A stretch of 64,000 nucleotides of DNA, from positions 208,750 to 272,749 of the forward strand of contig BPJG01000001.1 of NCBI GenBank assembly GCA_026004495.1, in the 5' to 3' direction. The DNA is from Candidatus Parcubacteria bacterium (GTDB lineage: Bacteria; Patescibacteriota; Minisyncoccia; UBA6257; HR35). The notes under the pieces are model-generated. The model was not told the origin of the DNA and ran no database searches. It saw only the letters and a program-made list of their open reading frames with translations. Positions 10,681-56,856 of the stretch are shown piece after piece (within the stretch, counting starts at the first letter, position 1; every line of letters starts with the position of its first letter). A program made the position numbers and the translations under genes.

Positions 10681-11034
10681 ATGGTTAGAGTCAAAAGGGG
10701 TAAAATAAAAACTAAAAAAAGAAAGAAAATTTTAAAATTAGCCAAGGGTTACAAGTGGAGTAGAAAATCAAAAGAAAAATTTGCCAAAGAAGCAATTTTG
10801 CATGCTGGCGTAAAAGCTTATCGTGGACGCAAAGAAAAAAAGAGGAATTTTAGAAAATTATGGCAAGTTCAACTTAATGCCTTTCTTAGATCTCGTGGCT
10901 TGAAATATAGTACTTTTATTCATCAATTAAAAGAAAATAATATCATCTTAAATAGAAAAATTTTAGCCGAATTGGCTAATAATTATCCTCAAATTTTAGA
11001 TAATATTATCGAAGAATTAAATTTAAAAAGTTAG
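10681..11034 (+). CDS. rplT: 50S ribosomal protein L20
   Basis: MVRVKRG..., basic N-terminus, NRKILAELA motif; 117 aa. No infC/rpmI upstream; topA sits there instead. Confidence 0.9.
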   Translation: MVRVKRGKIKTKKRKKILKLAKGYKWSRKSKEKFAKEAILHAGVKAYRGRKEKKRNFRKLWQVQLNAFLRSRGLKYSTFIHQLKENNIILNRKILAELANNYPQILDNIIEELNLKS

Positions 11035-14000
11035 CTAAATTATTCTTAAAGGAATCAATTATTTTATTACTAAATCCAAGCTGAGAACATCCCAAGCAAT
11101 CACCTTCATAACTAACCTTTAACAGCCAGCCACCCTTAAGAGCACCATTATAACCCCCAATTAAATAACCAGCATTATCTGCCTCAACAATCGATGAGCC
11201 AAAGCTTATTTCATCTCTACTCTGCCCTCCATAATATTTTACCCAAACTAAATTAAAATTTTTATCAACCTTCATTAACGCTAAAGACCAATCAGAGAAA
11301 TTATTTCCATCTTGCGTTAAGGGTAAATAACCGGTTATCAAAAAATTATTATCGTAATCTAAAATAATATCATTTCCGTAAAAATAATCATTACTAATTA
11401 ATTTTTCTTGAATAACTTCGCCATCATCAGGATTAATTTTTCTTAAAATTAATTTATATCTATTATCATCGGGGTCAAACATATTAGTTAAAGCAATAAT
11501 ATTACCATCATCAGCAAAAATAATCTTTTTAATTGTTTCTCGGCTACCAATTTTTAAAATATATTCTTTTTGCCAACGATAACTAAGATCAGCTTTTACT
11601 TTTACCAAGTAAGATTGATTATTTATTTCTCCACCCGCAAATATAAAAACATTAGTTTGATTTAAGACTGAATTAAATTGACTACTTAAGGCAAAATTAA
11701 TTGAAGAAATGTCCTTTAAAGTAGTAGAAGTAATTAACCAAATTTTTCCATAATTATTATTTGTTCTACCAACAACTATATAATTTATACCATCATAAGT
11801 TATATCACTAAAATAAGATGAATCAAAAGAGTTATCCATAATTAATTTAAGCGAACTATCAAATTGAGCCAAATAACCAGAATTAGCAACAGGATCGTTC
11901 TGATAATAATTACCTAAGGTCACAAAATAATTGCCATCATAAATAACTGATCGAAATTGATGACTAATATAACTTGGATCCATTAAACTACTTGAGCTAA
12001 CTATAATATTACCATTAATATCAAATTTGGCTATCCAGAAAGATGAAGTATTAATAAGTAAATCTTCACCAACAGCAACATAACCATCATCTGCTCTAAT
12101 TAACTTATTAATTTTTTTATTTTTGCCAATATTTTTTGAAAAATAATTATCGCATTGATTGACTAAAATCTTTTGATTTGGCTTGATAACCCTTGAAGTT
12201 AAAGATAGAGGTGTACTAGTAAGGTTGTAATTAGATGTACTAAAGCTTGAAATATCTGAAACAGGGGACGAAATTGTACTAAAGCTAAAAATATTAGTGG
12301 TCGTTATGTTATAAAGATTATTTTTAAGATAAAATAAATTTTTATCAGAAACAAATCTAATTAAATTGAAATAATACTTTGTTATAAATCCAAACCAAAA
12401 CTCTTCAGGCTTTAAATCATCTCCGAATGCTTCTATTATTTTAGTTATTTTTTTTAAATAAGCAATAAAAGGACTATCATCGATAAAACTACCAATTAAT
12501 AAATAACTATTATCATCTAATTGTAAAAAATTATTAAATACTAATCGATCATTAGAAGATAAAGCAGTTATTTTATATTCAGTTAATTTATCAAAGTTTT
12601 GATTTAATTTAATTAAATAATTTTCGCTACTACTATTGACTACTAACCAAAAATTATTTTTTTTATCCTGAAATATTCTTCTAATATCTATAGTTGAATA
12701 ATCGCCAGTATATTTTTTTATCCAGGCTAAATTACCCTGATAATCAGTTTTTACAAAAATATAACTGGTAGCATTTAAAGATTTATCATACATTGCATTA
12801 AAAAAATATCCTCCATCATTAGTTTGAAAAAGATAATTATTTCTTGGAGAATCCATGCTGAAATAAGAAGAAAATGCTATATTATCATATTGCTTTATCC
12901 ACTCAATTTTATTTTGATTATCAAATTTAGCCAAAAAAGCAGGTGGTACAGCCATATAGCCATAACTTCCTAACAAAATAAAGCCATCATCTTGTGTTTT
13001 ATTGCCAGCATATATTCTTCCAAATGTAATCTGATAATAATAATCTCCACCGCTTAAAATATCTCCGGTTGAACTTGAAATTTCAACTAATTGAAAGCCA
13101 GAATAATATCCTATGTTTCTGATTAGATTTATATTGCCTGAAAAATTATTATTAATAAATACCAATTTTTGGACAGCACTACAATCACTACCACTACAAT
13201 AAAGTCTTGACCATTGGGGATTAAAATCTTTATCAGTTTTTATTAGAATAGATTTATCGCTTAGATTATAACCTAAAACATAGCTTTCATCAGGTAATTG
13301 ATGAATGTAATTTAAATCGAGAGGAGATGAAGTATTTAAATAAATTGTTTTGATAAATTTAGGATTGCCGAATTTATCTAAAAAAATAGCTAGAAACGAC
13401 GAAGTGTTAGATGATAAATAATTATTACCAATAACTAAATAATCACCAGCTTTATTTCGAAAAACATAATTTCTAGTTGGATAAAAATTAAATAATTTAT
13501 TCCAACAAATATCCTGGCCCATTAGATTACCATAATTTATACCGAAGTTTAATTTCAAAGCTTGACAAGAACTTAGAGTAGTAGTTCCATAAATAATTGA
13601 TCCTGAGGTGCCAAAAGCAATTAAACATTTATTATTGCCAACCTCTAAAATCTCTTCATCACTACCACCATCAGTTAAAGCGGAAAATTGATTTTTTGTT
13701 TCTTTAAATACTCTTGATTCTAAATTAGCATTAACTTCAAATTGTCGAGCATCGCGCCTAAAAACATAAAGATAAAAATAATTTTTAATTGGTTGACTAT
13801 TATTAATAATATTTAAGGGATCAACTGGCAATTGGGGCAAAATTTGATTATTTTCATTAAAATTTATTGGCAACCAACCTTCACCATTGGGATTAAAAAC
13901 ATTAGTTGCTGATGAATTTTGTTTAATTTGCCAAAGATTGCCATAAGCATCAGTAATAGTTGAAAAATTAAAGGTTGATTGATCAACTGGAATTGAAATA

Positions 14001-14248
14001 TAAATTGACGAATTATCTTCATCTAAACCAGTTAAATCATATAAAGGACCATCCAAATCAGGATTTTTTGCCAGGTTTAAATAGTTATTAATAGCTATTT
14101 CTAAAGCTTGTAAATCTCTTATTCTTTGTAAATCTCTATTTCTTTTGGCTACTTCAATAGGATTAACTAAATAAACAAACAAAGAGGTTAAAATAGCAAT
14201 CAAAGTTATAATAACTAAAATTTCAATTAAAGTAAAACCTTTTTTCAT
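11006..14248 (-). CDS. Giant pseudopilin-fusion surface protein (prepilin N-terminus, GspG-like domain, beta-propeller repeats)
   Basis: 1080 aa. N-terminus MKKGFTLIEILVIITLIAIL = class III signal peptide/prepilin motif (G|FTLIE). ~180 aa GspG-like domain shared with the neighbouring gene (NPDLDGP, GWLPINF, LPVDP, KNYFY). Remainder: repeated ~40 aa G/D/Y-rich propeller-like units. Confidence 0.75.
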   Translation of the reverse strand: MKKGFTLIEILVIITLIAILTSLFVYLVNPIEVAKRNRDLQRIRDLQALEIAINNYLNLAKNPDLDGPLYDLTGLDEDNSSIYISIPVDQSTFNFSTITDAYGNLWQIKQNSSATNVFNPNGEGWLPINFNENNQILPQLPVDPLNIINNSQPIKNYFYLYVFRRDARQFEVNANLESRVFKETKNQFSALTDGGSDEEILEVGNNKCLIAFGTSGSIIYGTTTLSSCQALKLNFGINYGNLMGQDICWNKLFNFYPTRNYVFRNKAGDYLVIGNNYLSSNTSSFLAIFLDKFGNPKFIKTIYLNTSSPLDLNYIHQLPDESYVLGYNLSDKSILIKTDKDFNPQWSRLYCSGSDCSAVQKLVFINNNFSGNINLIRNIGYYSGFQLVEISSSTGDILSGGDYYYQITFGRIYAGNKTQDDGFILLGSYGYMAVPPAFLAKFDNQNKIEWIKQYDNIAFSSYFSMDSPRNNYLFQTNDGGYFFNAMYDKSLNATSYIFVKTDYQGNLAWIKKYTGDYSTIDIRRIFQDKKNNFWLVVNSSSENYLIKLNQNFDKLTEYKITALSSNDRLVFNNFLQLDDNSYLLIGSFIDDSPFIAYLKKITKIIEAFGDDLKPEEFWFGFITKYYFNLIRFVSDKNLFYLKNNLYNITTTNIFSFSTISSPVSDISSFSTSNYNLTSTPLSLTSRVIKPNQKILVNQCDNYFSKNIGKNKKINKLIRADDGYVAVGEDLLINTSSFWIAKFDINGNIIVSSSSLMDPSYISHQFRSVIYDGNYFVTLGNYYQNDPVANSGYLAQFDSSLKLIMDNSFDSSYFSDITYDGINYIVVGRTNNNYGKIWLITSTTLKDISSINFALSSQFNSVLNQTNVFIFAGGEINNQSYLVKVKADLSYRWQKEYILKIGSRETIKKIIFADDGNIIALTNMFDPDDNRYKLILRKINPDDGEVIQEKLISNDYFYGNDIILDYDNNFLITGYLPLTQDGNNFSDWSLALMKVDKNFNLVWVKYYGGQSRDEISFGSSIVEADNAGYLIGGYNGALKGGWLLKVSYEGDCLGCSQLGFSNKIIDSFKNNLANFLNLILR

Positions 14249-17200
14249 TGATTAATTGTTATTGAATTAATTGTAATTGTAGGAATTTGAGATTCGTCCA
14301 GTCTAGGATCCCATTTAAGAATTATAAACATTTTAGAGCAAATTAGATTCAAATTATACAAACGATTTGATCCTTTTTGTAAATTATATTCTTTATCATC
14401 GCAAATAAATTTATATTCTTTTATTTTATCTTGATTATTATTCGTACTAGCATTAATATCAACAACATTAATAAACTTGGGAGGATCAATTACTTCAATA
14501 TAAATAGCATAATTTCTTGCTTTTTTACCTGTTTCTTTGCTACCCAAGAGGGTACTAGTAAAAGTTTCTCCTATCTCAAAAATTTGATTATCAGTAGTAA
14601 TTTTATAATACTTAAATTTTGCTTGTTTATTATACTTATCACCAACACCATCAATCGGCGTTGATGTTCCTTCACCTATCTCATTAATTGCTGAAATTGT
14701 ATAAGTTGCAGAGGTTGCTAAACTCATTAAATCAATATAATTTAAATTGTCTGGTGAATTGGTAGCAAGTAAAATATAATTACTTGAAGTTGCTCTATAA
14801 ATTCGGTATTCTTTTATTTTACCAAAACCAGCTTTGGAGGAATAATTTTCAATTTTATCAATTACTAACCAAGCACCAAAAGTTCCGGTTTGTCTAATTG
14901 AAAAACTTGGTTGGGGTAGTGTCAGAGCAGTTGTACAAATTTCATTACTTGGTAAACTTTCTCCATTAGGATAATTAGCTTTAACCACATAACAATAACT
15001 TTCGCCAGCTAAAAGATTATTATCAGTAAAAGAAAGAGTAGATGTATTTGTTGTTGCATATGGTGAATTACCATAACTACTTCCTTTAATTTTTCGATAA
15101 ATTGAATAATTTAACAATACGCTTTCACCAGCTGAAGCCCAATTAAGAGTAATAGAATTATTCCCTAAAGTATACCTTACATTTTGAGGCGGCAATTTAA
15201 AATAAAAACCAATAGAGTTATTACCTGAAGTTATTAAGGTACTTTGATTATTTATTGCTTTTATGAGATAGTTATTATTAGGTTTACTTTCGTAATTGTA
15301 ATCAATATAAGAAGTAGCGGTAGTGGTAACAATCTTGATTCCATTCCGATAGACAACATAATAATTAACACCGCTTACACCATTCCAAATTAGTTGAATT
15401 CCTGAATCGGAAGTATAACTAAGATTAGGAGAAATGGTTGACAATACACCCGAAAACAATGCTTGACACTTAACTAAGCTTTTATCACTTTCGCCAATTG
15501 AATTAAGTGCGGTAACATAATAACAATAATTAATTCCTTCACTTACCGAATTATCAGTATAAGAAGTAGCTGTTGTTGCAGCAATAAGAATAAAATTATT
15601 TATCTCATTAGTTGAGGTTGATCTATAAATTTTATAATACTGAATATTCTCACCACCATTATATTGAGGAAGTTGCCATTCAAGTACAATAGATAATGAA
15701 CCAGTCGAAATGCTTAAATCTACAGGAGGTGTTGGTCGTAATTTATCAGATGTTGTTGCTGAACAAAATTCATTGGAAAAATTACTAACAAAGAAAAATA
15801 AATGCAAACCACTTCGATAACAATTTTTACCAGATAAAGGACTAGTATCAGTTGCATAATTGCCAAAAATATTTGTTATGTAATTATAATTATCAGATGA
15901 AGTAGCCCGGTAAATATATACAAGAAAACTAGAAAGACTTCTTAAATAATCCAAAAAATTATCAATAGAGAGATAGTTATAATTAGCACCCGATCTTGAA
16001 AAAAGAGTATATCTTTTATCTATTAAATTAAATTCTGTAAAAAAAGATTTTTTAAATAAATCATTCACATTACAAACATTAGCTAAATTTTCATAATCAG
16101 GTAAAATTTTGGAAACGAAATTTAAACTATAATTTAAAACTTGAATATCGGGTGAATTGATTTTTAAATTCGATGAATAATGGAAAAAATTAGATGATAA
16201 AGCTGATGGACTGATAATATTAATTAAAAATCTTTGTTGGATATTACCTTTGTTAAATATATTAAAGACTGGATCACTACTTGAACTAATATTTAGTGCT
16301 AATTGTCTATAAGAAGATGGACCCGTTGTAAAATAATGAGAATTACCAACTATGAAATAATAATCATTAGAAGATATTTCTAAACCATAAAAATTATCAT
16401 TATTATACCAACCAATATTTTTAGCAAAAATTATCTCGCCTGTTGTCGAATTAATTTTCATTACCAAACCGTCATAATTTAGATTATTATATGAATTTGA
16501 TTTACCGATAATAATATAATTACCATCGTAATCTTTTTTAACCTTATAAAGATAGTCATCACCACCAGCTGAATATCTTTTTTGCCAAAGAATTTGACCT
16601 TGATTATCAATTGCAATAGCAAAAGGGTCGTAATGGTTAGCATCAAATTGACTATAGCCAAAAATTAAATAACCAGAAGAGGAGGTCGCGATTGCCATAC
16701 CAAAATCATTACCACCACTATCATAAATTTTTTGCCAAATTAATTTTCCTTCTCTATCTACTTTAATTAAAATCACATCATAATCTTTTCGAAAAGAATT
16801 GCTATAACCTACAATAATATATCCATTATCATTAGCTTTAATTAATCCTTGACCAACATCATTCTTTAGACCACCAAATGTTTTAAAAACTTTTATTACA
16901 CCATTATTATTAAAAAGCGAAAAAATAATATCGTTATCACCTTGACCAAAACTCGAAGAATAACCAGTAAGAATAATTTCATCGCCATCTAAAATTCCAG
17001 CAAATATTTTTTCATCTTTTTTACCACCAATTTTCTTTGACCAAACAGTATCAAATGTCGTCGAAGATATTCTTACCAACAGACCATCATAATTATTACC
17101 AGATTTTACTTGACCTCCCAAGATGAAATAACTGGATGAAGCAAGAATAAAATTAAAACTACTCTCATTGGTTGTACTTGAAATTTTAATAGCTTGAGGA

Positions 17201-20067
17201 TTGCCTAAAGAATCTAATTGATACAAAACACCATTGTAATTTTGATTATTCCATTCCCAACCAACAGTTAAATATTGATTATTGTTTTTAACAACATCAT
17301 TGAAATTATTATTTTTATTATTAGGAAGATAGATTTTAGCAAAACATTGCGAATTATAACGACCAACTATATTACTCTTAAAACCAAAACCATTTGCATT
17401 TTTAGCCTTAACATAATAGTAAATAGGTGTAGAAGCTGAATTATCTTGGTCAAGGTAGGTTAGTCCTGTTGTTGTAGCAAGTAATTGATAGGTAGATGTT
17501 GGTGTTGATGTTGCTTTATAAAGATAATATTCAGTGGTGGCTGCTCCTTCATCAGATATCGGTGGTTGCCAGTTAAGTTGAGTGTAGCTTTCTTGGGTTT
17601 CCCGAAAGTCCAAAGATAAAGGAAAAAGTGGTGTTGAATTCGGACTACCCATAACATAATTTGAAGGAATAGATTCTAAATCACAAAAATCGCCTGATAT
17701 TTTAGTAACATAATAATAATAATTCTTTCCATTGATTAAACCAGTTCGAGTAAAACTATTTGCTGGAGTTGTTCCAATAAGTTGATATTCATCGCCAGTT
17801 GACTCATAAATTGCAAAGGAGGGCTTAGTATCTTTAGCATCACCATCTTCCCAACTAAGACTAATTTTATTGACTAAAGATTGGAGACTTAAATTATTAG
17901 GAGATATACATTGGGTTCCAGGAGATGAACAATTTCCATAACAACCACTTTCAATATTACTTCTTTTGCTTTCGCCAATTGAATTAACAGCAGTAATATA
18001 GTAATAATAAGTAGTTTTAGAAGCAGTGGATAAATCATTATAGCTAGTAGCAGTAGTCGAAGCAATAAAAATATATTGAGAAGAAGTTGCTCGATAAATA
18101 TTGTAATAACTAACAGCTGAACCTTCATTAGAAAGAGGTGGTTCCCAAGTAAGACGAATACCATTAGCTAACGCTGAAGTCTGAAGTTTGCCGGGTGGTA
18201 TAGGATAACCTCGGGGAGTCGCAGAAACAGTAGTAGCATAATTAGAAACACCAAATTGATTTTTTGCTTGAATAGTATATTCATAAGTTTGTCCGTTAAT
18301 TAAATCTTGATGAGTGAATTGATAGCTATTTGTTGGAATAGCAGGAAATTCAAAAAGATAACGCCAATTATTTTCTCCGCTTAACCTGTAATAAAGTAAA
18401 TAAGAATCAATAACTGAACCACCATCATTGTTGGGATATTGCCAAGATAGGTTTATAGTTTTATTACCTGAAAAAGCTGAAAAATTAATTGGTGGTGAAG
18501 GATTTGTACCAGGGACAATGCATCGTTGTTGGCTAAAATTACTACTACCTACTTTATTAACAGCTTTAATTTTATAGCAATATTTTTGACCATTATTAAG
18601 ATTGGAATGTTGATAAACTAAAATATTATAACTTGTAGTTGCAATCAAGTTATCATTGTCATTATATATTTCATATCTAATTATTTCGCTACCACCATCA
18701 TCATCTGGTTTTAACCAAGTTATTACAATTTGCCCATCTCCAGGACTTAATTTATCAATAATAGGTGGTGAAGAGGTAGCAGTTATTTTAACATACACAG
18801 GTATAGTTATAGTTGAATCAGATTCAACTAAATAAATATTTTGCTTACAATAAAAATCTTGTTTAAATGATTTTAGCATTAAAGTAAATATTAAAGAAGT
18901 AGAAGAATAAGGATTTACGATAAAACTAGTTGGAGTGGAAATAACATAAGAAGGACAAGTCGTAGTTGTCTCTTTATAAAAAAAATCACGTAATTCAACT
19001 GATAGCTTTGAATCACCATTATTATAAATGATCAATTCATGGCTTACAGAGCTATCGGTTGTTTTTGCTTCTAAAATAGCAGTTGGGGGGTTAATTCTAT
19101 ATATTGGCGCGGCCGAAAAATTACAAGTTATATTTATTGAGTATGGATTGACTTTTTTAGGATCATTGTGCCAAATAAATAATATTGTTTCTGTTGTGGT
19201 TGCTGAAGTCAATGATCTACCATCACAAGTTAAAATAAGGGTTGTAGTATTATTGGGAGCAATAACAAAATTATTTTTATTTATTTTAAGCAATGAATTC
19301 TGGTTTGATTGAGTAATTTGATTAATTAATAAATAAGCTGTACCGGTATTATAAATATAAAGATAAGTAGAGGATGATTGAGAAATAGGGGCAGTTAAGA
19401 CTAAGGAGGTGGTATTAGTATTTAAAGACGGAAATGAAAGTTGATATTTACTATAACCATAAATTACTGGTGGAATAATATTTAAATCTGTTCCAACTTC
19501 AAAGGATTCGCTATCACCTCCATCACTTTTGGCAATTTCAATAAATTTAGGACATTCAAATTTAGCATTTAATTCATAAGATTTAGCTGATTTTTTAAAA
19601 GCATAAGAATAAAAATAATTTTTATTAAAAGAATTAATTGGATCTACTGGTAAAAGATTAATTGCTTTTTTTGATAAAGATAAAAAATTTATTGGTAACC
19701 AACCTTGGCCATTAATAAGCGAAGAAAGGGCAGTCGAAGAAGGTTGAATTATTAACCAATTTTTTCCTTCGAAACTAAATGAAGTTGAGGTTGATTCTTT
19801 ATCTTTAGGAATACTTATAAATATTGAGGAGCTTGATTCATCAAATCCAGAATTAGAAAAATAAGGACCATCTAAATCAGGATTATTTGTTTCCGAGAAG
19901 TAATGAGCAATCGCTGAATTTAATGAATTAAGGTCATTTATTCTCTGGGTATCTCGAGAGCATTTGATAATATCTAAAGGTTTAATTAAATTAATAACAA
20001 AAGTTGAAATTATACCCAAAGCTGATAAAACAGCAATTAATTCAATTAAAGTAAAACCTTTTTTCAT
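14245..20067 (-). CDS. Giant pseudopilin-fusion surface protein (prepilin N-terminus, multiple FN3 domains, beta-propeller repeats)
   Basis: 1940 aa. MKKGFTLIELIAVLSALGII prepilin N-terminus; paralogous GspG-like domain. At least 4-5 FN3-like modules (e.g. PSPPINFSAFSGNKTINLSWQYPNNDGGS...YEYTIQAKN). ~45 aa repeats (GG.NDxG..I...DGYII.GYS.S) typical of SBBP/DUF5122-like propellers. Overlaps the downstream paralog by 4 nt. Confidence 0.75.
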   Translation of the reverse strand: MKKGFTLIELIAVLSALGIISTFVINLIKPLDIIKCSRDTQRINDLNSLNSAIAHYFSETNNPDLDGPYFSNSGFDESSSSIFISIPKDKESTSTSFSFEGKNWLIIQPSSTALSSLINGQGWLPINFLSLSKKAINLLPVDPINSFNKNYFYSYAFKKSAKSYELNAKFECPKFIEIAKSDGGDSESFEVGTDLNIIPPVIYGYSKYQLSFPSLNTNTTSLVLTAPISQSSSTYLYIYNTGTAYLLINQITQSNQNSLLKINKNNFVIAPNNTTTLILTCDGRSLTSATTTETILFIWHNDPKKVNPYSINITCNFSAAPIYRINPPTAILEAKTTDSSVSHELIIYNNGDSKLSVELRDFFYKETTTTCPSYVISTPTSFIVNPYSSTSLIFTLMLKSFKQDFYCKQNIYLVESDSTITIPVYVKITATSSPPIIDKLSPGDGQIVITWLKPDDDGGSEIIRYEIYNDNDNLIATTSYNILVYQHSNLNNGQKYCYKIKAVNKVGSSNFSQQRCIVPGTNPSPPINFSAFSGNKTINLSWQYPNNDGGSVIDSYLLYYRLSGENNWRYLFEFPAIPTNSYQFTHQDLINGQTYEYTIQAKNQFGVSNYATTVSATPRGYPIPPGKLQTSALANGIRLTWEPPLSNEGSAVSYYNIYRATSSQYIFIASTTATSYNDLSTASKTTYYYYITAVNSIGESKRSNIESGCYGNCSSPGTQCISPNNLSLQSLVNKISLSWEDGDAKDTKPSFAIYESTGDEYQLIGTTPANSFTRTGLINGKNYYYYVTKISGDFCDLESIPSNYVMGSPNSTPLFPLSLDFRETQESYTQLNWQPPISDEGAATTEYYLYKATSTPTSTYQLLATTTGLTYLDQDNSASTPIYYYVKAKNANGFGFKSNIVGRYNSQCFAKIYLPNNKNNNFNDVVKNNNQYLTVGWEWNNQNYNGVLYQLDSLGNPQAIKISSTTNESSFNFILASSSYFILGGQVKSGNNYDGLLVRISSTTFDTVWSKKIGGKKDEKIFAGILDGDEIILTGYSSSFGQGDNDIIFSLFNNNGVIKVFKTFGGLKNDVGQGLIKANDNGYIIVGYSNSFRKDYDVILIKVDREGKLIWQKIYDSGGNDFGMAIATSSSGYLIFGYSQFDANHYDPFAIAIDNQGQILWQKRYSAGGDDYLYKVKKDYDGNYIIIGKSNSYNNLNYDGLVMKINSTTGEIIFAKNIGWYNNDNFYGLEISSNDYYFIVGNSHYFTTGPSSYRQLALNISSSSDPVFNIFNKGNIQQRFLINIISPSALSSNFFHYSSNLKINSPDIQVLNYSLNFVSKILPDYENLANVCNVNDLFKKSFFTEFNLIDKRYTLFSRSGANYNYLSIDNFLDYLRSLSSFLVYIYRATSSDNYNYITNIFGNYATDTSPLSGKNCYRSGLHLFFFVSNFSNEFCSATTSDKLRPTPPVDLSISTGSLSIVLEWQLPQYNGGENIQYYKIYRSTSTNEINNFILIAATTATSYTDNSVSEGINYCYYVTALNSIGESDKSLVKCQALFSGVLSTISPNLSYTSDSGIQLIWNGVSGVNYYVVYRNGIKIVTTTATSYIDYNYESKPNNNYLIKAINNQSTLITSGNNSIGFYFKLPPQNVRYTLGNNSITLNWASAGESVLLNYSIYRKIKGSSYGNSPYATTNTSTLSFTDNNLLAGESYCYVVKANYPNGESLPSNEICTTALTLPQPSFSIRQTGTFGAWLVIDKIENYSSKAGFGKIKEYRIYRATSSNYILLATNSPDNLNYIDLMSLATSATYTISAINEIGEGTSTPIDGVGDKYNKQAKFKYYKITTDNQIFEIGETFTSTLLGSKETGKKARNYAIYIEVIDPPKFINVVDINASTNNNQDKIKEYKFICDDKEYNLQKGSNRLYNLNLICSKMFIILKWDPRLDESQIPTITINSITINQ

Positions 20068-27028: not shown

Positions 27029-27613
27029 TTAATCAATTAATTCATCTTTTCTAAACCAAATTTTAAGTTCATATTGAGCTTCTTTAATATTTCCGGAAGC
27101 ATGAATTAGGTTTTTTATAGCTCTTTTTTCTAAATTAGCCACAATTGGTGAGTCGATAGCAAAATCACCCCTAATTGTCCCTGGTGGAGCTTTATAGGGC
27201 AATGTTGGACCGACAATTTTTCTCACTACTTCAACTGCATGATTTCCCTCGATGGCTATTTTTACTATAGGACCAGAACACATAAAATCTATAAGCCATT
27301 TTCTTACTAATAAGCCTAAATTATAAACATCATTAACTCCGAAATCTTTTTTTAAATCATATTTAATATTATTTTCTTGACAAGTTTTTATGAAATTATT
27401 ACCTAAATTTTCTATCCACTCCCTTGTTTTGGGATAATGTTTGTCAATTAAATTTTTTGTTGCTCTTACTATTCCTAAGCCAACAATTTTTAATCCTGCC
27501 CTTTCAAAACGAGAAATTATTTCACCAATTAAACCTCTTTCAATTCCGTCAGGCTTTATTAATACTAAGGTTCTTTCTTTTTTAAATTTTTTAAGATTAT
27601 TATTAATATCCAT
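27029..27613 (-). CDS. ndk: Nucleoside diphosphate kinase
   Basis: ERTLVLIKPDG, NLIHASG motifs. Start reassigned to internal Met (MDINNN...) because the track's N-terminal extension (to 27694) overlaps the RNase P RNA. Confidence 0.8.
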   Translation of the reverse strand: MDINNNLKKFKKERTLVLIKPDGIERGLIGEIISRFERAGLKIVGLGIVRATKNLIDKHYPKTREWIENLGNNFIKTCQENNIKYDLKKDFGVNDVYNLGLLVRKWLIDFMCSGPIVKIAIEGNHAVEVVRKIVGPTLPYKAPPGTIRGDFAIDSPIVANLEKRAIKNLIHASGNIKEAQYELKIWFRKDELID

Positions 27614-27640
27614 TTTCTTTTTTATCAAAAATGAATAAAT

Positions 27641-28011
27641 AATCTTGGTAAGATTATAAGCCGGATTCTGTATCCTTAAAATTAAGGACAGCAATCATTT
27701 ATCTGGAACTTAGATTACTCAAAGTTTCAAGCGGTACTCCCAAATTAAATTGGGCACGACCTTGCACCCGGAAAAGAAGGAAACAATTTTCTGAATTACT
27801 TCAGAAAATAATGGAGTAGCCTAAAAATGACTTTTTAGACACCTCCATTCTTTTCACCTTTCTCCGATTTGAAAACTAGATAGTATAGTCTCTGTGCTTC
27901 CTTCTTAGGGCTTACGCCCTAGCTCCATTTCGGAGCTTTCCTTTTTAGGGTGTCCGGACTTTCCTCTCTTTAATATAAGAATTAAAGAGTGATTGCTTAT
28001 CCTACCAAGAT
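27641..28011 (-). ncRNA. rnpB: RNase P RNA (bacterial type A-like)
   Basis: Minus-strand sequence carries P4 5' strand AGGAAAGUCCGGAC and P4 3' strand ACAGAAUCCGGCUUA. P3 hairpin CUCUUUAAU...AUUAAAGAG. 5'/3' ends pair as a long P1 (AUCUUGGUAGGAUAAGC / GCUUAUAAUCUUACCAAGAU). ~370 nt, GC-enriched, ORF-free. Confidence 0.85.
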
Positions 28012-42186: not shown

Positions 42187-43014
42187 TTAGCTCTTATTAT
42201 TTAACCAGTCTTGTTGTAATTTTTTAATAAGTTTTTGGTTTTTTAGATATTTATAATTCAATTTCCAGACAAATTGGAAAAGTTCAGGGTTTATTTTTAA
42301 TTTTTTATATAAATATATCAGGGCATTTAAATCTTTAGGTAAACATTTACCACCAAAACCTCGATAACCTTCATAAAAAACTTTAAGATGAGTTTTACCC
42401 AGTCTTGGTTCATTTTCCAAGATTTCTCTTAATTCATCGTAGTTTATTTTTAGTTTTTGGCACAAATCATAAACTTGATTAGCAAAGATAACTTTTAAAG
42501 CTAAGAAATCATTAATTGTCAATTTTGCTAATTCAGAAATTTTTGAGTCAACAATTTTTGTATAAGAGGCTTTAGGCAGAAGTTGAAGAATTTTTTCAGC
42601 TAAATTTTTTGATTTTTGAGTATAGCCGACTAACTGGATAACTGGCTTGACGAAATCTTCATACGGATATTTTTCTCTTAAAAATTCAGGATTATGAAGA
42701 AATTGATGAATTTTATACTTTTTTTGAAAATATTCGATTGTGCCAGGAAGGAGTGTTGATTTAACAATGAATACTTTTGGAGTTTTGAAATATTTAATGT
42801 TTTCTTCTAAGGCTGATAAATCATAACCTGTTTTTGGGCTGTAAGGAGTTGGCAAGCAAAGAAAAATAATTTTTGCTTTATTAACTTCTTCTAAGCTACC
42901 AATATTTTTAAATTTATCATAACCATAAACTTCAAATTTTTCCTTTTTCAGCCAATCAAATAAAGTTTGGCCAACAATACCTAAGCCAATTATTCCAATT
43001 TTTTGTTGTTTCAT
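42187..43014 (-). CDS. Truncated nucleotide-sugar dehydrogenase-family protein (NAD-binding + central domain only)
   Basis: IGIIGLGIVG Rossmann; GGKCLPKD catalytic-Cys motif; 275 aa, no C-terminal UDP/GDP-binding domain. Confidence 0.6.
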   Translation of the reverse strand: MKQQKIGIIGLGIVGQTLFDWLKKEKFEVYGYDKFKNIGSLEEVNKAKIIFLCLPTPYSPKTGYDLSALEENIKYFKTPKVFIVKSTLLPGTIEYFQKKYKIHQFLHNPEFLREKYPYEDFVKPVIQLVGYTQKSKNLAEKILQLLPKASYTKIVDSKISELAKLTINDFLALKVIFANQVYDLCQKLKINYDELREILENEPRLGKTHLKVFYEGYRGFGGKCLPKDLNALIYLYKKLKINPELFQFVWKLNYKYLKNQKLIKKLQQDWLNNKS

Positions 43015-43280
43015 TTTAGAAGTTTATAAATCCAGTTATGATGACCGATTAAATGAAAAATGGCTTTTTTATTTCCTGCAAAAGAAAAAATAATCCTGTA
43101 TTTTCTATCTACTCGAAACGACCATAAATTTTTTAGAGAATGCAATTTTTCTACTTTTAAAATCGGATTAAACGGTTGTCTTTCAAATAATCTAATCTTT
43201 TTAAAAGTCTTCTTTTTTATTGAATCTGGCAATATATCAAAAGTTTTCTCAAATTTTCTAGTATAAATAATTTCTATCAT
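43011..43280 (-). CDS. Type II toxin, RelE/ParE (YoeB-like) family
   Basis: 89 aa; KFEKTF...WSFRV..YRIIF...IGHH pattern; start overlaps upstream antitoxin stop (ATGA). Confidence 0.7.
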   Translation of the reverse strand: MIEIIYTRKFEKTFDILPDSIKKKTFKKIRLFERQPFNPILKVEKLHSLKNLWSFRVDRKYRIIFSFAGNKKAIFHLIGHHNWIYKLLK

Positions 43281-43513
43281 TAAATCAAATTCTTATATTT
43301 TCTATAAAGTTCTTTAATATTTTTCACTCTACCCTTTTTATAATCGTTAATTGATTCTTTAAGAGATTCTAAAAAATCTGGATTATAAAAACCAAATAAA
43401 TCTGCCAATTGTTCAAACTTCTCAGCATCAATTTTTATTATATATTTATCCTTAGTTTTTTTAATTTCCACTTGTAATTGAGGCATTATTTGATAAATTT
43501 TTAATTTTGACAA
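43280..43513 (-). CDS. Antitoxin partner of RelE-like toxin
   Basis: 77 aa ORF immediately upstream and translationally coupled to the toxin. Confidence 0.55.
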   Translation of the reverse strand: MSKLKIYQIMPQLQVEIKKTKDKYIIKIDAEKFEQLADLFGFYNPDFLESLKESINDYKKGRVKNIKELYRKYKNLI

Positions 43514-43735
43514 TCTTGAAATAAATTGTTTTTTTCATTTTAAAATTATAACACAGAATGAAATTTTAATTTCCCTGGGTTTATGCCTCTTTTCTCAAAG
43601 CTTTTTCTTATATCTTATAATCTTTGTTTTTATCTTAGTTTTATTTTAACATAAAAATTTATCTAACTAATACTGAGTAGATAAAAATACTATCATATTC
43701 CCGAGAATATAAGAATGTTTTCCCCTGTTTTTATT

Positions 43736-44127
43736 TTAAAAATCGTTTATTTTTAAAAATCTTTTATTTAAAAAATCGAGTAATTGAATTTCTTTAACCT
43801 TTTTAAAATCTGTTATATCTTTAGTAACCAATATTTGTTTGTAATAAATAGCAGTTGCTGCGATTATCGCATCTCCTATTTTTAAATTGTATCTCCTTTT
43901 TAATTCGGCAGCTAATTCGCTAATATCATCGTTGATATAAATTTTGCTAAATTTATTTAAAAAATTTTTGATTACTAAAATATCTCCGTCTTTTAATTTA
44001 GGATAAGATAAAATTTCAATAAAAGATATGAATGAAATAAATAATGGCGTATTTTTATACCATAAATTTTCCAATAATCTTACTATCTATTTTTTTGTTT
44101 TGGAGATAATAAATTAAGATGTTACTA
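43736..44127 (-). pseudogene. PIN-domain (VapC-like) toxin, frameshifted
   Basis: N-terminus MLIDSNILIYYL (PIN D-x-N signature) in one frame starting at an ATG overlapping the antitoxin stop. Remainder (….GDAIIAATAIYYKQILVTKDITDF) in another frame; shift near 44040-44060. Confidence 0.55.
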
Positions 44128-44299
44128 TCAATAAGCATATTCTTTTAGAATTTTTCTTTGATATTTAAAAGGATCAATTTTATCAGGCCAAATGCCCTTA
44201 GCTAAAATCCATTTGTACGGAATTCTCTCTACTTTCAATATTTTTTAATCTTTTTGTTCGTTGAGCTTTTTTAATTTTTTTGCAACCTGATTTCTCATT
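44117..44299 (-). pseudogene. VapB-like antitoxin remnant, two frameshifts in poly-A tracts
   Basis: Three-frame reconstruction MRNQVAKKLKK / KAQRTKRLKNIESRE / VERIPYKWILAKGIWPDKIDPFKYQRKILKEYAY*; breaks at A7 and A5/A6 runs. Confidence 0.4.
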
Positions 44300-44383
44300 A
44301 GACTAATTATAACAAAAAATTTATAACTAAATTAAATTCTTGTTTTTTATAAAGTCCATTAATATTTTTTGTTCTTCCCTCTT

Positions 44384-44517
44384 TATAATCTCTCTATCAC
44401 TTTTACACTTTTAATAAAATCTTCATTATATAAACCTAAGGCGTTCATCAGCCTTTCTCATTTATTTATATCAATAACTATTTTATTTTTATTAATTTTT
44501 ATATCTAAAGTTGCCAT
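44384..44517 (-). pseudogene. AbrB/MazE (SpoVT-AbrB fold)-like antitoxin with in-frame TGA
   Basis: MATLDIKINKNKIVIDINK-TGA-ERLMNALGLYNEDFIKSVKVIERL*; TGA at 44458..44460; other genes in the window use TGA as stop. Confidence 0.35.
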
Positions 44518-44519
44518 TA

Positions 44520-44800
44520 TTTAATTATATCACTTTTTAACTAAAAGAAACATTTGCTCAGGTTCCCAGATAGATTTATAATTTCGATTTTATAATTTTT
44601 TGATTCAAGAAAATTGATTACTTTTTTGAGTTCATCAGCAGCAACACGAGTTAAAAAAATTAACTCCTTCAAAATCTAAATCAATTTTAAAATTTCATCT
44701 CTTAATTTGATTATCAGAACTCATAAAAATATTTGCTGATCTAAAATTTTTTAAAACCCTTATAATCATTTTATAAATTAGAGGAAATTAAATTTTAAGT
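44520..44800 (-). pseudogene. Further short frame-disrupted ORF fragments (TA-module debris)
   Basis: Only 30-40 aa fragments in several frames (e.g. LTRVAADELKKVINFLESKNYKIEIINLSGN); ~800 bp without an intact ORF in an otherwise gene-dense genome. Confidence 0.3.
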
Positions 44801-44869
44801 TTTTTTGTTAAATTTTATCCTTGTATTTTAATTTTAGCAAAATTTGAAAAAATTTTATTTAGAAGAAAT

Positions 44870-45187
44870 ATGAGATATAATATTATTGCTATGAGAAAAT
44901 TCGGGGTATTTTTATTAATTTTAACCTTGTTGGTTAGTTTTTTGTATTTAAATTTTTCTAATTTTTATAACCTTATCTTTGCTCTTGACCAAGATAATTT
45001 TGATGTTTTGGATTATGTTTGGACCGTAAGCGATAGCTCGTTTTTATCTATTCTTATTGGTTTTGTACTTATTAACATTTTTACTTTTCTCTTTTTAACA
45101 AGGCTAAAAATTATCATTGAATCTCTTTTACTAAAAAATAATCATAACTATCCTAAAATAGCTTGTCGATCTCCGCCTTTAAATTAG
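44870..45187 (+). CDS. Hypothetical small membrane protein
   Basis: 105 aa, two hydrophobic segments. Confidence 0.35.
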   Translation: MRYNIIAMRKFGVFLLILTLLVSFLYLNFSNFYNLIFALDQDNFDVLDYVWTVSDSSFLSILIGFVLINIFTFLFLTRLKIIIESLLLKNNHNYPKIACRSPPLN

Positions 45188-45241
45188 TCTCTGGTTTAAT
45201 CTTTATTATCAATAGTCGCTCTTAAAACCTAATTAATTAAA

Positions 45242-45685
45242 ATGAAAAAATTAACCTTTGTCTTATTAACTTTAGTTCTTCTTACATCATTAACATTAGC
45301 TCAAACTACAACAACTTCAACTTCAACAATATCAACTCCTAAACATAAACCTGTTGTACCAGTTAAGAAAGGTGTGGTAAAGAAAGAAAAGGTTAAAAAA
45401 CTCTCATCTTATCAAGGTTGTGTTGGACAGAAAGTGAGAGAATTAACTAAAGAGATGCAAAGTAAGAAAAAAGAGGCTTTGAATAATTATCGAAATGAAA
45501 TTAAAAATGCAACCTCAACTACTGCTAGTCGTGAAGTAAGAAAAAATTATATTCCAGTCATTAGAGATATTAACAAATGGTACAACAGTGAATTAAGAAA
45601 AATCAAACAGGAGTGTAAAATAGCAACCACTACCCCAACATCAACTCCAACTACTTCCAATTCAACTGCAACCTCAACTCAATAA
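45242..45685 (+). CDS. Secreted Thr-rich hypothetical protein
   Basis: Signal peptide MKKLTFVLLTLVLLTSLTLAQT; T/S-rich termini; followed by a strong terminator. Confidence 0.5.
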   Translation: MKKLTFVLLTLVLLTSLTLAQTTTTSTSTISTPKHKPVVPVKKGVVKKEKVKKLSSYQGCVGQKVRELTKEMQSKKKEALNNYRNEIKNATSTTASREVRKNYIPVIRDINKWYNSELRKIKQECKIATTTPTSTPTTSNSTATSTQ

Positions 45686-45710
45686 TTAGGTCGAATTTAA
45701 TCACAACCCA

Positions 45711-45747
45711 AATCACCCCCATTTCGGGGGTGATTTAATTTATTTTA
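45711..45747. terminator. Rho-independent terminator (bidirectional)
   Basis: AATCACCCCC-ATTTC-GGGGGTGATT perfect 10-bp stem followed by TTAATTTATTTT; sits between convergent genes. Confidence 0.75.
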
Positions 45748-46117
45748 ATTTTTCAAAAAGATCTTTTAGATATTTTAAAATTTTTGGAAGTTTTTGATAG
45801 ATTTTGTCAGCTAATTCTTCGCTATAAATATGAGCAGTTTGATTCCTAAAATCTATTATTTTTAACCAATATTCGTCATAATCAATAATGCCTTCTTGAT
45901 AAGCAGAGCGAAAACAACTTTTAGGAGAATGACATTCAATTTTTTGATATTCCAATAGATATGCTTTTAATGTTTCCCAAGCTAAATCAAAGCAAATTTC
46001 AAATCTCTTTATTGCTGAATTGCGAGTTATTTCATTTTTCTCTTTATTAAGAATTTCTTAAAAACGCCTTAGTGATTTTTCAAATTTTTGAAGCAAATCT
46101 TCGAATATTTAATCATT
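45740..46117 (-). pseudogene. HepT-like toxin (nucleotidyltransferase substrate-binding family), disrupted
   Basis: Rx4HxY motif (RNQTAHIY); upstream in-frame segment IFEDLLQKFEKSLRRF-TAA-EILNKEKNEITRNSAIKRFEICFDLAWETLKAYL matches the HepT N-terminus but is interrupted by TAA (46059..46061). The only ATG (46115..46117) is in a different frame. Confidence 0.6.
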
Positions 46118-46422
46118 TAATTTAGATATTCAATCTTCTTTTTAGCAATTTTTTTAAATTCTTCATCAACATTATTAAAATCAACAAAATCTATTTTGTA
46201 AAGAATGGGTAAATTTTCTAATTCTTCTTCAATTTTAAATTTTATCTCTACTGGAATTTCTGGATCTTCTATCCCAACATCAATATCGCCTCGGTCATCA
46301 AAATTTTCATAAACTCTTTAACCAAAGAAAAAAACTTTATATTTACTTAGATCTAAATATCTGTTTAAAATATTCAGGATATCATTTTTCAGCTTGTTAG
46401 CTGGATAATGTCTAAGCTCCAT
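46118..46422 (-). pseudogene. MNT-like nucleotidyltransferase antitoxin with premature stop
   Basis: MELRHYPANKLKNDILNILNRYLDLSKYKVFFFG-TAA-RVYENFDDRGDIDVGIEDPE...; stop (46318..46320) replaces the conserved Ser of the GS motif (TCA->TAA); hG[GS]...D.D signature otherwise intact. Confidence 0.6.
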
Positions 46423-46444
46423 CAATTAAATTATACTAAATTAA

Positions 46445-46955
46445 TTATTTAACCACAATTTCTCCTGTAAATGATGGGTTTAAATGATCATGATAATACC
46501 ATTCACCAACTTCATTAAAAACAAAAAACCAACTTTCTCCTTTATTTAAACCTCGGCAGACATCAAAAATTTTAGCTTGCTCTGGAGTGCCACATTTTTC
46601 AATACCTGAACTGGGATAAACACGATGAGTTGGATGAACAGCCGATGCTGGCCAAGAAGGTTTAGAAGATTCATTAACCCAAGTAACTTTTGTTCCTTTA
46701 GTTATTTCAACTTCTTTTGGCTCAAAGCCATTATTAGTTATTCTGATAATGACTTCAGAAGTAGTTACTTTGGATGAAGGTGTTTCTGTTGATATTGTCG
46801 GCGTTGTTGGTGTAGAAGGTATTTCTAAAGAAGGTGAGGCTGGAGACCGAGACAATTTTGGCGTTAAAGATGGAGTTCTGTATTTATTAAAAAATAATAA
46901 CCGATTCCTAATAAAAAGGCTAAAATAAATACAGTAGTTATTAAATTCTTTCCAT
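46445..46955 (-). CDS. Cupredoxin-like domain protein, N-terminal signal anchor out of frame (possible pseudogene or assembly indel)
   Basis: Mature domain (FEPKEVEITKGTKVTWVNES...HPTH...C...C...YYHDH) in one frame; upstream ATG (46953..46955) and TM helix (NLITTVFILAFLLGIGYYFL) lie in other frames; breaks at A-run and T6 homopolymers. Confidence 0.45.
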
Positions 46956-47048
46956 TGAAAATTAATTATGTAATTAACATAAACAGTTCGGATATATTAT
47001 TTTGTTTTGTTTACTCCGTCCGTGTATAGCCTGTATTCAGCTTTTATA

Positions 47049-47666
47049 TTATATGGCCTTTTTATAATTTTCCTCTATTTTTTCCCAATTAACAACATTC
47101 CACCAACTTTGGATATATTCATTTCTGCGATTTTGATATTTTAAATAATAAGCATGTTCCCAAACATCAAGGCCCATAATTGGTAGATCTCCATTCATTA
47201 AAGGATTATCTTGATTTGGCAAAGAATAAACTTTTAATTTTCTATCTGAACTTACCACTAACCAAGCCCAACCAGAACCAAAATGTTTTAATGCTGTTTC
47301 TGAAAATAAATTTTTAAAATTCTCAAAAGAGCCAAAATTTTCTTCAAGCGCCTTTTTTAATTCTCCGATTGGTTCACTTCCACCATTTGGTTTCATTATT
47401 TCCCAAAAGAGTGAATGATTATAATGTCCACCACCATTATTTCTAACAACTGTTCTTATATCCTCAGGAAGTTGGTCTAAATTTTTCAATATTTCTTCAA
47501 GTTCTACATTTTGCCATTCAGGATATTTTTCTAAGGCTGAATTTAAATTATTAATATAAGTCTGATGATGTTTAGTGTGATGAATTTTCATTGTCATCTC
47601 ATCAATGTAAGGCTCTAGGGCATCATAATAGTAAGGCAATTTTGTTAAATTATAAGGATAATTCAT
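47049..47666 (-). CDS. sodA: Fe/Mn-family superoxide dismutase
   Basis: [18 protein letters not shown] metal-ligand motifs; 205 aa. Confidence 0.9.
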
Positions 47667-55512: not shown

Positions 55513-55917
55513 TTAATCAAGAATAAAAATTCTTAAGTTTTGTAGGTTTTGATTATTTTTCTCTACCTGAAAATTAAATCTTAATTCAAATGGTTGATTT
55601 ATAAACTTGCTAACAATATTACCAGAAATATTTCTGCTTTCAGGATTAATTTCATTTAAGCTAAAAAAAGAGTTTATATCATTAATAATAAAAGATTTAT
55701 TTGTTGGTTGTAAATAATCATTTAAAAAAATTTCTTGAAGTGCCATATTAAGAATTGATAATTGTGAATATAGTAATCGTGCATTACTAACAATAGATTT
55801 AGAAAAATTATTTTCTTTAACTAAAATTATCCCAAATAGAATTAAAATGCTAAAACTTAATAAAAAAATAACAATTATAAAAACGAATGTTGCTTGACCT
55901 TTATTTAAAAACTCCAT
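55513..55917 (-). CDS. Small pilin-like membrane protein
   Basis: 134 aa; N-terminal KGQATFVFIIVIFLL hydrophobic segment after Gly; last of three consecutive small N-terminally hydrophobic genes. Confidence 0.4.
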   Translation of the reverse strand: MEFLNKGQATFVFIIVIFLLSFSILILFGIILVKENNFSKSIVSNARLLYSQLSILNMALQEIFLNDYLQPTNKSFIINDINSFFSLNEINPESRNISGNIVSKFINQPFELRFNFQVEKNNQNLQNLRIFILD

Positions 55918-56366
55918 AAATATAAAGTAGATGTTAAATTTAATGTTTGATTATTATTTGAATTTGATATCTTAATAAAAACATTATAAAAATCTGAATT
56001 AGATGAAACATCAAAATTATTAACTTTAATATTATCAGAGGTAAATTTTGTCGAAGTTACTTCATTTTCTAAATAAATTTTTTCATTTAATAGATATAAT
56101 TTTTCATAACCTTCAGGATAAAAATTAAATTTTATACTACTTGAAGTTATTTCTGTTGAAATGGCTGAAATTGAATTAAAATAAAGTCTATTTATAATTC
56201 TAAAAACATCATTTCTTAAATTTAGTTTATCCAAATATATAGAAGAATAAAATGTTATACCATAAAAAATTATCGTTGTCAAAACACCCAAAATACTAAT
56301 TATTGAAATATAAATAATTAATTCTATTAAAGTAAAAGATTTATTGTGATAATTCAATTTGGCCAT
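55905..56366 (-). CDS. Pseudopilin (type IV pilin-like), start trimmed to internal Met
   Basis: MAKLNYHNKSFTLIELIIYISIISILG: prepilin-type motif (xFTLIEL with Glu at +5). Confidence 0.55.
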   Translation of the reverse strand: MAKLNYHNKSFTLIELIIYISIISILGVLTTIIFYGITFYSSIYLDKLNLRNDVFRIINRLYFNSISAISTEITSSSIKFNFYPEGYEKLYLLNEKIYLENEVTSTKFTSDNIKVNNFDVSSNSDFYNVFIKISNSNNNQTLNLTSTLYLWSF

Positions 56367-56856
56367 TAATTTTAATATTCTCAGATTTATTATTGTATTG
56401 ATTAATAATTCCACTTGAGGCGTCGACAATGCTATCGGTAGCCACCTCCCAACTATCTTGAATAAAAATCAACTCCTTAATATTTGTAATTTTCAAAGGA
56501 AAGCTATAAATATCTTTAGATGTTTGAATATAAACATTTAAGCTATCATCAGTTATTTCAAACCAACGGTAATAACCATTAAGATAATTATCTTTACCGA
56601 CTTTAATTTCATAATTATTATCAAAATAATAGGGTTGATTTTTTAATAAATTTTCAAATTGTGAATAATTTTTCCTTGCTATACCTAAAACAATACTTTG
56701 ATAAGATAAGGCTGAATTATAAATAATAATAGATTTATCAGCATTTTCAATTGATTGGGGAATTATATTAAAAATTAAAAATATTATCAAAGAAAGAAAA
56801 GATAAGATAAGAATACCTGTTAAAACTTCAAGTAATAATTGTCCATTATTTTGCAT
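56341..56856 (-). CDS. Pseudopilin (type IV pilin-like)
   Basis: MQNNGQLLLEVLTGILIL: Gly then hydrophobic helix with Glu at +5. Confidence 0.55.
   Translation of the reverse strand: MQNNGQLLLEVLTGILILSFLSLIIFLIFNIIPQSIENADKSIIIYNSALSYQSIVLGIARKNYSQFENLLKNQPYYFDNNYEIKVGKDNYLNGYYRWFEITDDSLNVYIQTSKDIYSFPLKITNIKELIFIQDSWEVATDSIVDASSGIINQYNNKSENIKINGQIELSQ

Follow-up and report, generated by a model that had tools for sequence, protein, structure and literature searches.

The locus considered here raises a simple question: are two adjacent reading frames, a minimal nucleotidyltransferase (MNT) antitoxin gene followed by a HEPN toxin gene, each interrupted by a TAA codon, the remains of dead genes, genes that still work, or a misreading of intact ones, and if they are dead, when and in what order did they fail? 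The two frames lie on the minus strand from 46422 to 45740 of the window, i.e., the whole 64-kb stretch of DNA that was analysed, which has a G+C content of 26.4% and is occupied by long open reading frames (ORFs) over 92% of its length. It belongs to the metagenome-assembled genome (MAG) mg094 from Katase hot-spring sediment at 52 °C, classed as Patescibacteria (PMC9671151). Publicly, the locus appears solely as KatS3mg094_243 (Candidatus Parcubacteria bacterium; 634-kb contig), a 71-aa 'hypothetical protein' that matches, at 99% identity and from end to end, a residual ORF at the end of the toxin frame, the one mismatch being the TTG start codon, which is Met in the gene call and Leu in the reading-frame query. 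It should rather be annotated as two pseudogenes. With a probability of roughly 0.9, the locus is read as a class I HEPN/MNT (type VII, HI0073/HI0074-like) toxin-antitoxin operon that became pseudogenised recently on the chromosome of MAG KatS3mg094. Its parts, in the order of transcription, are as follows.

46117..46422, minus strand: MNT (MntA-like minimal nucleotidyltransferase) antitoxin pseudogene, 101 codons plus TAA stop (PF18765, HRbin35_00241, HI0073)
46279..46323, minus strand: relic of the GSX10DXD motif, namely G34, a stop at 35, RVYENFDDRG, and D46-I-D48
46318..46320, minus strand: in-frame TAA at MNT codon 35, the Ser of GSX10DXD (TCA in bacterium HR35)
46114..46116, minus strand: ancestral HepT ATG, placed by alignment to HR35; it adjoins the MNT stop (TAA-ATG) and no longer shares a frame with the HepT body
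46106..46113, minus strand: 8-bp insertion ATTAAATA directly after the ancestral HepT ATG, opposite an 8-column gap in HR35, L002, and L003
45740..46108, minus strand: HI0074/HepT-like HEPN toxin pseudogene body, 122 codon positions plus stop (PF08780, PF01934, TIGR01987)
46058..46060, minus strand: in-frame TAA at HepT codon 17 (GAA, Glu, in HR35)
45740..45955, minus strand: residual 71-aa ORF with a TTG start, the only piece annotated publicly (KatS3mg094_243)
45824..45847, minus strand: intact RX4HXY motif, RNQTAHIY, codons 88-95, from the translation

For the family assignment, profile scans were run on frame-repaired proteins bearing an X at each stop. The repaired HepT matches PF08780 (NTase_sub_bind) over profile positions 3-125 of 126 (E=3e-26; 92.3 bits against a cut-off of 31.8) and TIGR01987, the HI0074 family, over positions 2-121 of 123 (81.8 bits against a cut-off of 55.8), thereby passing the curated full-length cut-offs of both profiles; it also matches PF01934 (HepT-like; E=5.6e-6), while the repaired MNT matches PF18765 (Pol-beta nucleotidyltransferase; E=4.2e-6). 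The assignment is thus far beyond chance. The NCBIfam equivalog cut-off of 60 bits is missed by both proteins (24.2 bits for NF047751 HepT_toxin and 24.4 bits for NF047752 MntA_antitoxin), which places them in a distant subfamily rather than among equivalogs of the Shewanella-type HepT/MntA. On these profile matches, the pair is assigned to the HI0073/HI0074 (PF08780) branch of class I HEPN/MNT pairs. Among proteins of known structure, the repaired HepT aligns end to end with TTHA0048 from Thermus thermophilus (PDB 1WTY; E=6.6e-28) and with HI0074 from Haemophilus influenzae (PDB 1JOG; E=3.7e-5), and the repaired MNT aligns with HI0073 from H. influenzae (PDB 1NO5; E=1e-3). Identity between the window proteins and these solved structures of the 'nucleotidyltransferase substrate-binding' HEPN family (HI0073/HI0074/TTHA0048) is modest, and the window copy can make neither protein.

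Class I HEPN/MNT (type VII) pairs are defined by two motifs, RX4HXY in the toxin and GSX10DXD in the antitoxin (Yao et al. 2020, PMC7641770), and the Pfam pair of the window, PF08780 with clan CL0260, falls inside the class I definition of that paper. The type VII HepT/MntA pair of Shewanella oneidensis (SO_3166/SO_3165) has the same architecture, with the MNT gene 5' of the HEPN gene, and the likeness extends to both motifs, since the window toxin has RX4HXY and the window antitoxin has the spacing of GSX10DXD; unlike in Shewanella, the codon for the Ser of the GS motif is a stop. In characterised relatives, the toxicity of the HEPN RNase is neutralised through oligo-AMPylation by the MNT of the motif Tyr, RX4HXY being both the RNase active site and the carrier of the Tyr AMPylated by MntA (PMC7641770). 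By homology, the ancestral pair of the window would have had the same AMPylation and RNase activities. Same-strand adjacent genes with the MNT directly upstream of the HEPN gene are found in the window, as well as in bacterium HR35 and in contigs L006 and L007. In the window, however, neither toxin nor antitoxin has an intact ORF, each gene carrying a TAA and the HepT start being displaced, so that the locus is filed as a pseudogenised relic and not as a working member of the class.

Scanning GTDB species representatives with the HR35 HepT returned HR35 itself, a Candidatus Calescibacterium MAG, and a distant match in Desulfosporosinus, but not the genome of the window, and thus brought in no close relatives. 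In the Calescibacterium MAG (contig L009), MNT and HepT form one 249-aa ORF (2632-3381) with a linker of ~25 aa. Fused MNT-HEPN toxin-antitoxin proteins have been described (PMC13000451, 2026); whereas the Calescibacterium fusion is a single ORF in another phylum and another context, the window has the two-gene form, broken. The fusion is 80% identical to the HR35 HepT, and Calescibacterium likewise comes from hot springs; such identity across phyla suggests horizontal transfer of the module between them. A second intact pair, on L006 (2249-2951) and L007 (1451-2153), has an MNT 84% identical to that of the window. It sits in a wholly different neighbourhood (PIN_3, DUF2229, CAP, sortase), which shows the module to be mobile.

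The state from which the window locus departed can be read from bacterium HR35 (GCA_002898235.1, BEIL01000001.1), whose sequence is available in three assemblies, with L002 and L003 carrying it identically. Here the two genes are intact and adjacent, and they are the best hits for the two window proteins: HRbin35_00241 (101 aa) is 86% identical to the repaired MNT and HRbin35_00240 (122 aa) is 89% identical to the repaired HepT, and nucleotide identity is 88%. The gene order is that of the window (Fe/Mn superoxide dismutase [SOD], cupredoxin-like gene, MNT, HepT), hence the locus is orthologous; the TAA-ATG junction between MNT and HepT and the motifs are also the same. Nucleotide alignment to HR35 reveals three differences that matter, at MNT codon 35, at HepT codon 17, and in the 8-bp insertion: TCA in HR35 is TAA in the window (Ser35), GAA is TAA (Glu17), and an in-frame ATG is ATA. 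With HR35 and the intact pair of L006 as references, all lesions map to the window branch.

In the MNT gene, the frame from 46422 to 46117 reads MELRHYPANKLKNDILNILNRYLDLSKYKVFFFG, the internal stop, and then RVYENFDDRGDIDVG; in a longer reading, it runs from MELRHYPANKLKNDILNILNRYLDLSKYKVFFFG and the stop through RVYENFDDRGDIDVGIEDPEIPVEIKF to KKKIEYLN and the terminal stop. The corresponding GSX10DXD stretch of the HR35 orthologue is GSRVYGNFDDRGDVD, and in the window its spacing and all its other residues are there, TAA alone replacing the Ser codon. The motif would thus describe the ancestral state of the gene and not its present sequence. Within 66 codons 3' of the internal stop, no ATG, GTG, or TTG start was found.

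In the HepT gene, the body reads (I)FEDLLQKFEKSLRRF, the internal stop, EILNKEKNEITRNS, and on through RNQTAHIY to EKLK and the terminal stop, with IIDFRNQTAHIYSEELADKIYQKLPKILKYLKDLFEKLK as the C-terminal end of the frame and ATA as the first in-frame codon. The MNT stop (46119..46117) directly adjoins the ancestral HepT ATG (46116..46114). The insertion that follows, ATTAAATA, repeats the preceding ATTAAATG in tandem but imperfectly, the two octamers differing at one base, and its last three bases, ATA, fill the position of the in-frame first codon. Most simply, the octamer would have been duplicated in tandem, which alone would have done no harm, and a later G to A change in the second copy would have turned ATG into ATA. 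Starting HepT at the TTG of codon 5, where no frame problem arises, was considered and is possible, but translation would still halt at codon 17. Nor was this TTG retained as the original start, since the orthologue reveals the ATG and the history of the 8-bp insertion. The sole HepT ORF left is the 71-aa C-terminal fragment, which lacks the first two helices.

Most of this had been anticipated in the sequence-only reading. It had placed the pair in the HepT/MNT family, which the matches to PF08780, TIGR01987, and PF18765 bear out, although the name is now sharpened to the HI0073/HI0074 type. Its proposal that the MNT signature is kept except for a TAA at codon 35 in place of a TCA Ser codon agrees with the TCA of HR35, and the HepT motif RNQTAHIY that it had recognised is indeed there. 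The TAA that it saw near the start of HepT is real and lies at codon 17, but at 46058-46060, one base away from the 46059-46061 given originally, and what it called a frame change corresponds, in the HR35 alignment, to the 8-bp insertion after the ancestral ATG. The reconstructed frames are conserved in the codon-aware alignment that it had proposed, made with the intact syntenic homologue of HR35.

Before such lesions are taken at face value, it can be asked whether the genes are in reality intact, the stops and the insertion having come from faulty sequencing, consensus calling, or assembly. HiFi data carry homopolymer indel errors. The MAG was assembled with metaFlye 2.8.3 from PacBio HiFi reads of a single SMRT cell, and no polishing step is mentioned (PMC9671151). 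However, the lesions do not resemble the HiFi error profile, two of them being base substitutions and the other an insertion of 8 bp away from homopolymers. In addition, a k-mer based Logan re-assembly of run DRR290133 (4168 nt) is 100% identical to 42986..47153 of the window; as the same run underlies both, the assembly is independent but the sample is the same. Over the remaining 90% of the window, long ORFs run without a break, among them genes of 1940, 1080, and 811 aa; every housekeeping gene that was examined there is uninterrupted, and the lesions cluster only in an accessory tract. An origin of the lesions in the data is therefore very improbable. A search of JGI metagenome contigs for an exact pattern spanning the MNT stop, in which the mutated base was left as N, gave no match.

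Alternatively, the pair might still be functional if the TAA codons were translated, whether through programmed read-through, suppression by a tRNA, or codon reassignment. Both internal stops are indeed the same codon, and both genes otherwise look constrained, but TAA serves as the regular stop in 40 of the 55 long ORFs in the window, and the three tRNAs encoded in these 64 kb, Glu(CTC), Met(CAT), and Leu(CAG), include no suppressor. Read-through would also leave the displaced HepT start unrepaired, and the broken neighbouring genes carry TGA stops and indels instead. As for the apparent constraint, low dN/dS is accounted for by the recency of the loss. Together, the identical second assembly and the use of TAA to end 40 of the 55 long ORFs make both error and recoding unlikely, recoding being scarcely credible, and pseudogenisation is retained as the reading of the locus.

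The age of the damage can be estimated from dN/dS between the window and HR35, calculated according to Nei-Gojobori for the two pseudogenes and their neighbours.

MNT: dS 0.53, dN/dS 0.113
HepT: dS 0.62, dN/dS 0.094
SOD (neighbour): dS 0.59, dN/dS 0.098
Cupredoxin-like gene (neighbour): dS 0.58, dN/dS 0.224

On the window branch, MNT and HepT together have accumulated 28 synonymous, 13 missense, and 2 nonsense changes. The neutral spectrum for these genes would instead be 18% synonymous, 74% missense, and 7-9% nonsense, i.e., ~4 missense changes per synonymous one. The low share of missense changes and a dN/dS like that of the SOD imply purifying selection over nearly the whole branch, followed by a recent inactivation; judged by these substitution counts, the knock-out of MNT and HepT is recent. 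The earlier suggestion of a recent inactivation with very few substitutions is thus borne out, the values of 0.113 and 0.094 standing beside 0.098 for the SOD at a dS of ~0.55. Two nonsense changes among at most 15 non-synonymous events are compatible with a random nonsense fraction of 7-9%. Being statistically unremarkable, they are compatible with selection for loss without requiring it.

A further state of the same locus can be found in two unrelated metagenomes, in contigs L005 (300-760; Logan assembly of SRR27730013) and L011 (1048-1367; JGI Ga0105162_1024747, the one contig matched by a conserved 50-nt HepT pattern), which represent a lineage sister to the window for this region. In both, the cupredoxin-like gene ends in a stop codon that runs straight into HepT codon 21, the entire MNT gene and HepT codons 1-20 having been removed. 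The junction falls in similar short sequences, GAAATT..TTAA(A)TAA, which identifies the deletion, from its sequence, as of the microhomology type. The HepT remnant carries a TAA at codon 31 and R88K in the catalytic motif and has lost its stop codon; in L011, the cupredoxin-like gene is interrupted as well. Over HepT codons 21-122, three-taxon counts assign 10 synonymous and 5 non-synonymous changes to the window branch versus 6 and 14 to the L005 branch (Fisher p=0.044, on small counts), in keeping with neutral evolution of the L005/L011 remnant. As the L005 branch looks neutral whereas the window branch is constrained, HepT was still constrained in their common ancestor, and the two lineages lost the module independently. 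By these counts, HepT/MntA was removed independently at least two times within one small hot-spring Parcubacteria clade, while it survives in HR35.

The C-terminal HepT fragment (71-78 aa) starts at one and the same TTG in the window and in the L005/L011 lineage, with the RX4HXY motif intact in the former and altered by R88K in the latter. It might be retained as a small protein, but this is even less likely than the active selection against the module that is discussed below.

The pair does not decay alone. The following features lie downstream of HepT in the same tract (43.5-46.4 kb) or at its edge.

43011-43513, minus strand: intact ParE/RelE-like toxin of 89 aa, preceded by a DUF2683-like partner (68-77 aa)
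43736-44138, minus strand: PIN (VapC-like) toxin with a frameshift near 44073 (PF01850); region absent from HR35
44359-44517, minus strand: DUF2683-like antitoxin paralogue with two in-frame stops and a 6-bp in-frame deletion
44541-44769, minus strand: STAS/DUF4325-like ORF broken by +1, -16, and +1 indels; the HR35 orthologue has 80 aa (L001 8477-8719)
45708..45738, both strands: G+C-rich hairpin AATCACCCCC...GGGGGTGATT between HepT and a convergent 147-aa ORF

In the PIN gene, the N-terminal 22 codons, MLIDSNILIYYLQNKKIDSKII (44138..~44073), are in another frame than the ORF 44074..43736; repairing the frame extends the match to PF01850 from positions 29-118 (E=2e-12) to positions 1-118 of 120 (E=1.1e-17). 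One of the two stops of the DUF2683-like gene, a paralogue of the small partner of the ParE-like toxin, is a TGA where HR35 has TGG (Trp), and the STAS/DUF4325-like ORF remains as fragments of 24 and 43 aa. The ParE-like module, with the toxin itself at 43280..43011, is the sole toxin-antitoxin module in the tract that is still whole, toxin and partner being 92% identical to HR35 at the nucleotide level. Between these genes and HepT, ~0.9 kb (44846-45735) is absent from HR35 and from L005 and would therefore be a lineage-specific insertion adjoining the dead HepT; it holds two plus-strand ORFs, one hydrophobic, of 105 aa (44870-45187), and one of 147 aa (45242-45685) with a signal-peptide-like start and Thr-rich ends. 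This segment also contains the hairpin, a strong one, which looks like a bidirectional terminator: 3 terminator-like sites were found versus 0.6 expected in shuffles, the hairpin site being found on both strands. The tract is a variable accessory region of a tiny genome in which toxin-antitoxin genes are gained and eroded, a streamlined genome of ~0.6 Mb from the CPR having, in this one tract, a broken PIN toxin, antitoxin paralogue, and STAS-like ORF.

From these elements, a course of events can be proposed. In the ancestral operon, the upstream MNT would have AMPylated Tyr95 of the RX4HXY motif in the downstream HEPN RNase, keeping it inactive. The operon then took three or four small hits, nearly all from G/C to A/T, as is typical of a genome with 26% G+C: TCA to TAA at MNT codon 35, GAA to TAA at HepT codon 17, and the 8-bp imperfect tandem duplication at the HepT start, such that a full-length protein would be impossible from either gene. 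Regarding their order, loss of the antitoxin in the presence of an active toxin should be deleterious, which makes it most likely that the toxin failed first or simultaneously. The toxin, or its translation, would have had to fail no later than the antitoxin. Translation of HepT was probably coupled to that of MNT through the TAA-ATG junction, and a premature stop in MNT would uncouple it. The tally of lesions is two independent ones in HepT and one in MNT. Loss of the pair forms part of the wider erosion of accessory genes in the tract.

Whether this loss was neutral or favoured can be discussed in the light of the same data. It can be hypothesized that an active HepT/MntA was selected against in this clade, e.g., owing to the cost of an RNase toxin in the tiny genome of an episymbiont, and that disabling hits were fixed fast and independently, which would refine the pseudogene reading rather than exclude it. 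Three or four disabling lesions on an otherwise fully constrained background, together with the independent L005/L011 deletion at a time when the window branch was still under purifying selection, would fit such a scenario. However, two nonsense changes among at most 15 non-synonymous ones are not unusual where 7-9% of random mutations give stops, as in these AT-rich, Lys/Glu-rich genes; the binomial probability is ~0.07 to 0.4, depending on the number of missense changes placed after the first hit. Furthermore, any hit after the first is neutral, and unrelated accessory neighbours decay too, fitting a general relaxation of selection on the tract. An adaptive loss in this clade is therefore viewed as unlikely, and it is quite doubtful that the independent removals reflect active selection against the type VII module in ultra-small episymbiont genomes rather than neutral erosion. 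The locus is a case of routine decay of accessory toxin-antitoxin genes, real but ordinary. Decayed toxin-antitoxin modules are common and the locus belongs to the most abundant predicted family, so that taken alone it matters little. Its only mildly interesting aspect is that three sister lineages present the intact, the freshly point-inactivated, and the largely deleted state of one syntenic module, a clean and datable series.

Some further observations concern other parts of the window. A mechanical scan for stops flanked by long open stretches returned many chance matches in non-coding frames and is not diagnostic in a sequence with 26% G+C. On the minus strand, a 221-aa nucleoside diphosphate kinase ORF (27029-27694) matches its profile (135 positions) in two separate stretches, which indicates an unusual extension or insertion. 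At 11006-20067, also on the minus strand, two adjacent and very large genes encode proteins of 1940 aa, with five fibronectin-III repeats, and 1080 aa, with an N-terminal type IV pilin N-methylation motif, and may form a giant pilin-like pair of surface proteins of the putative episymbiont. The overlapping ORFs 55905-56429 and 56341-56856 were examined as a possible frameshift, which was rejected, the overlap being due to an over-extended start; of the two, 55905-56429 alone carries, at residues 29-50, the N-methylation motif of type IV pilins.
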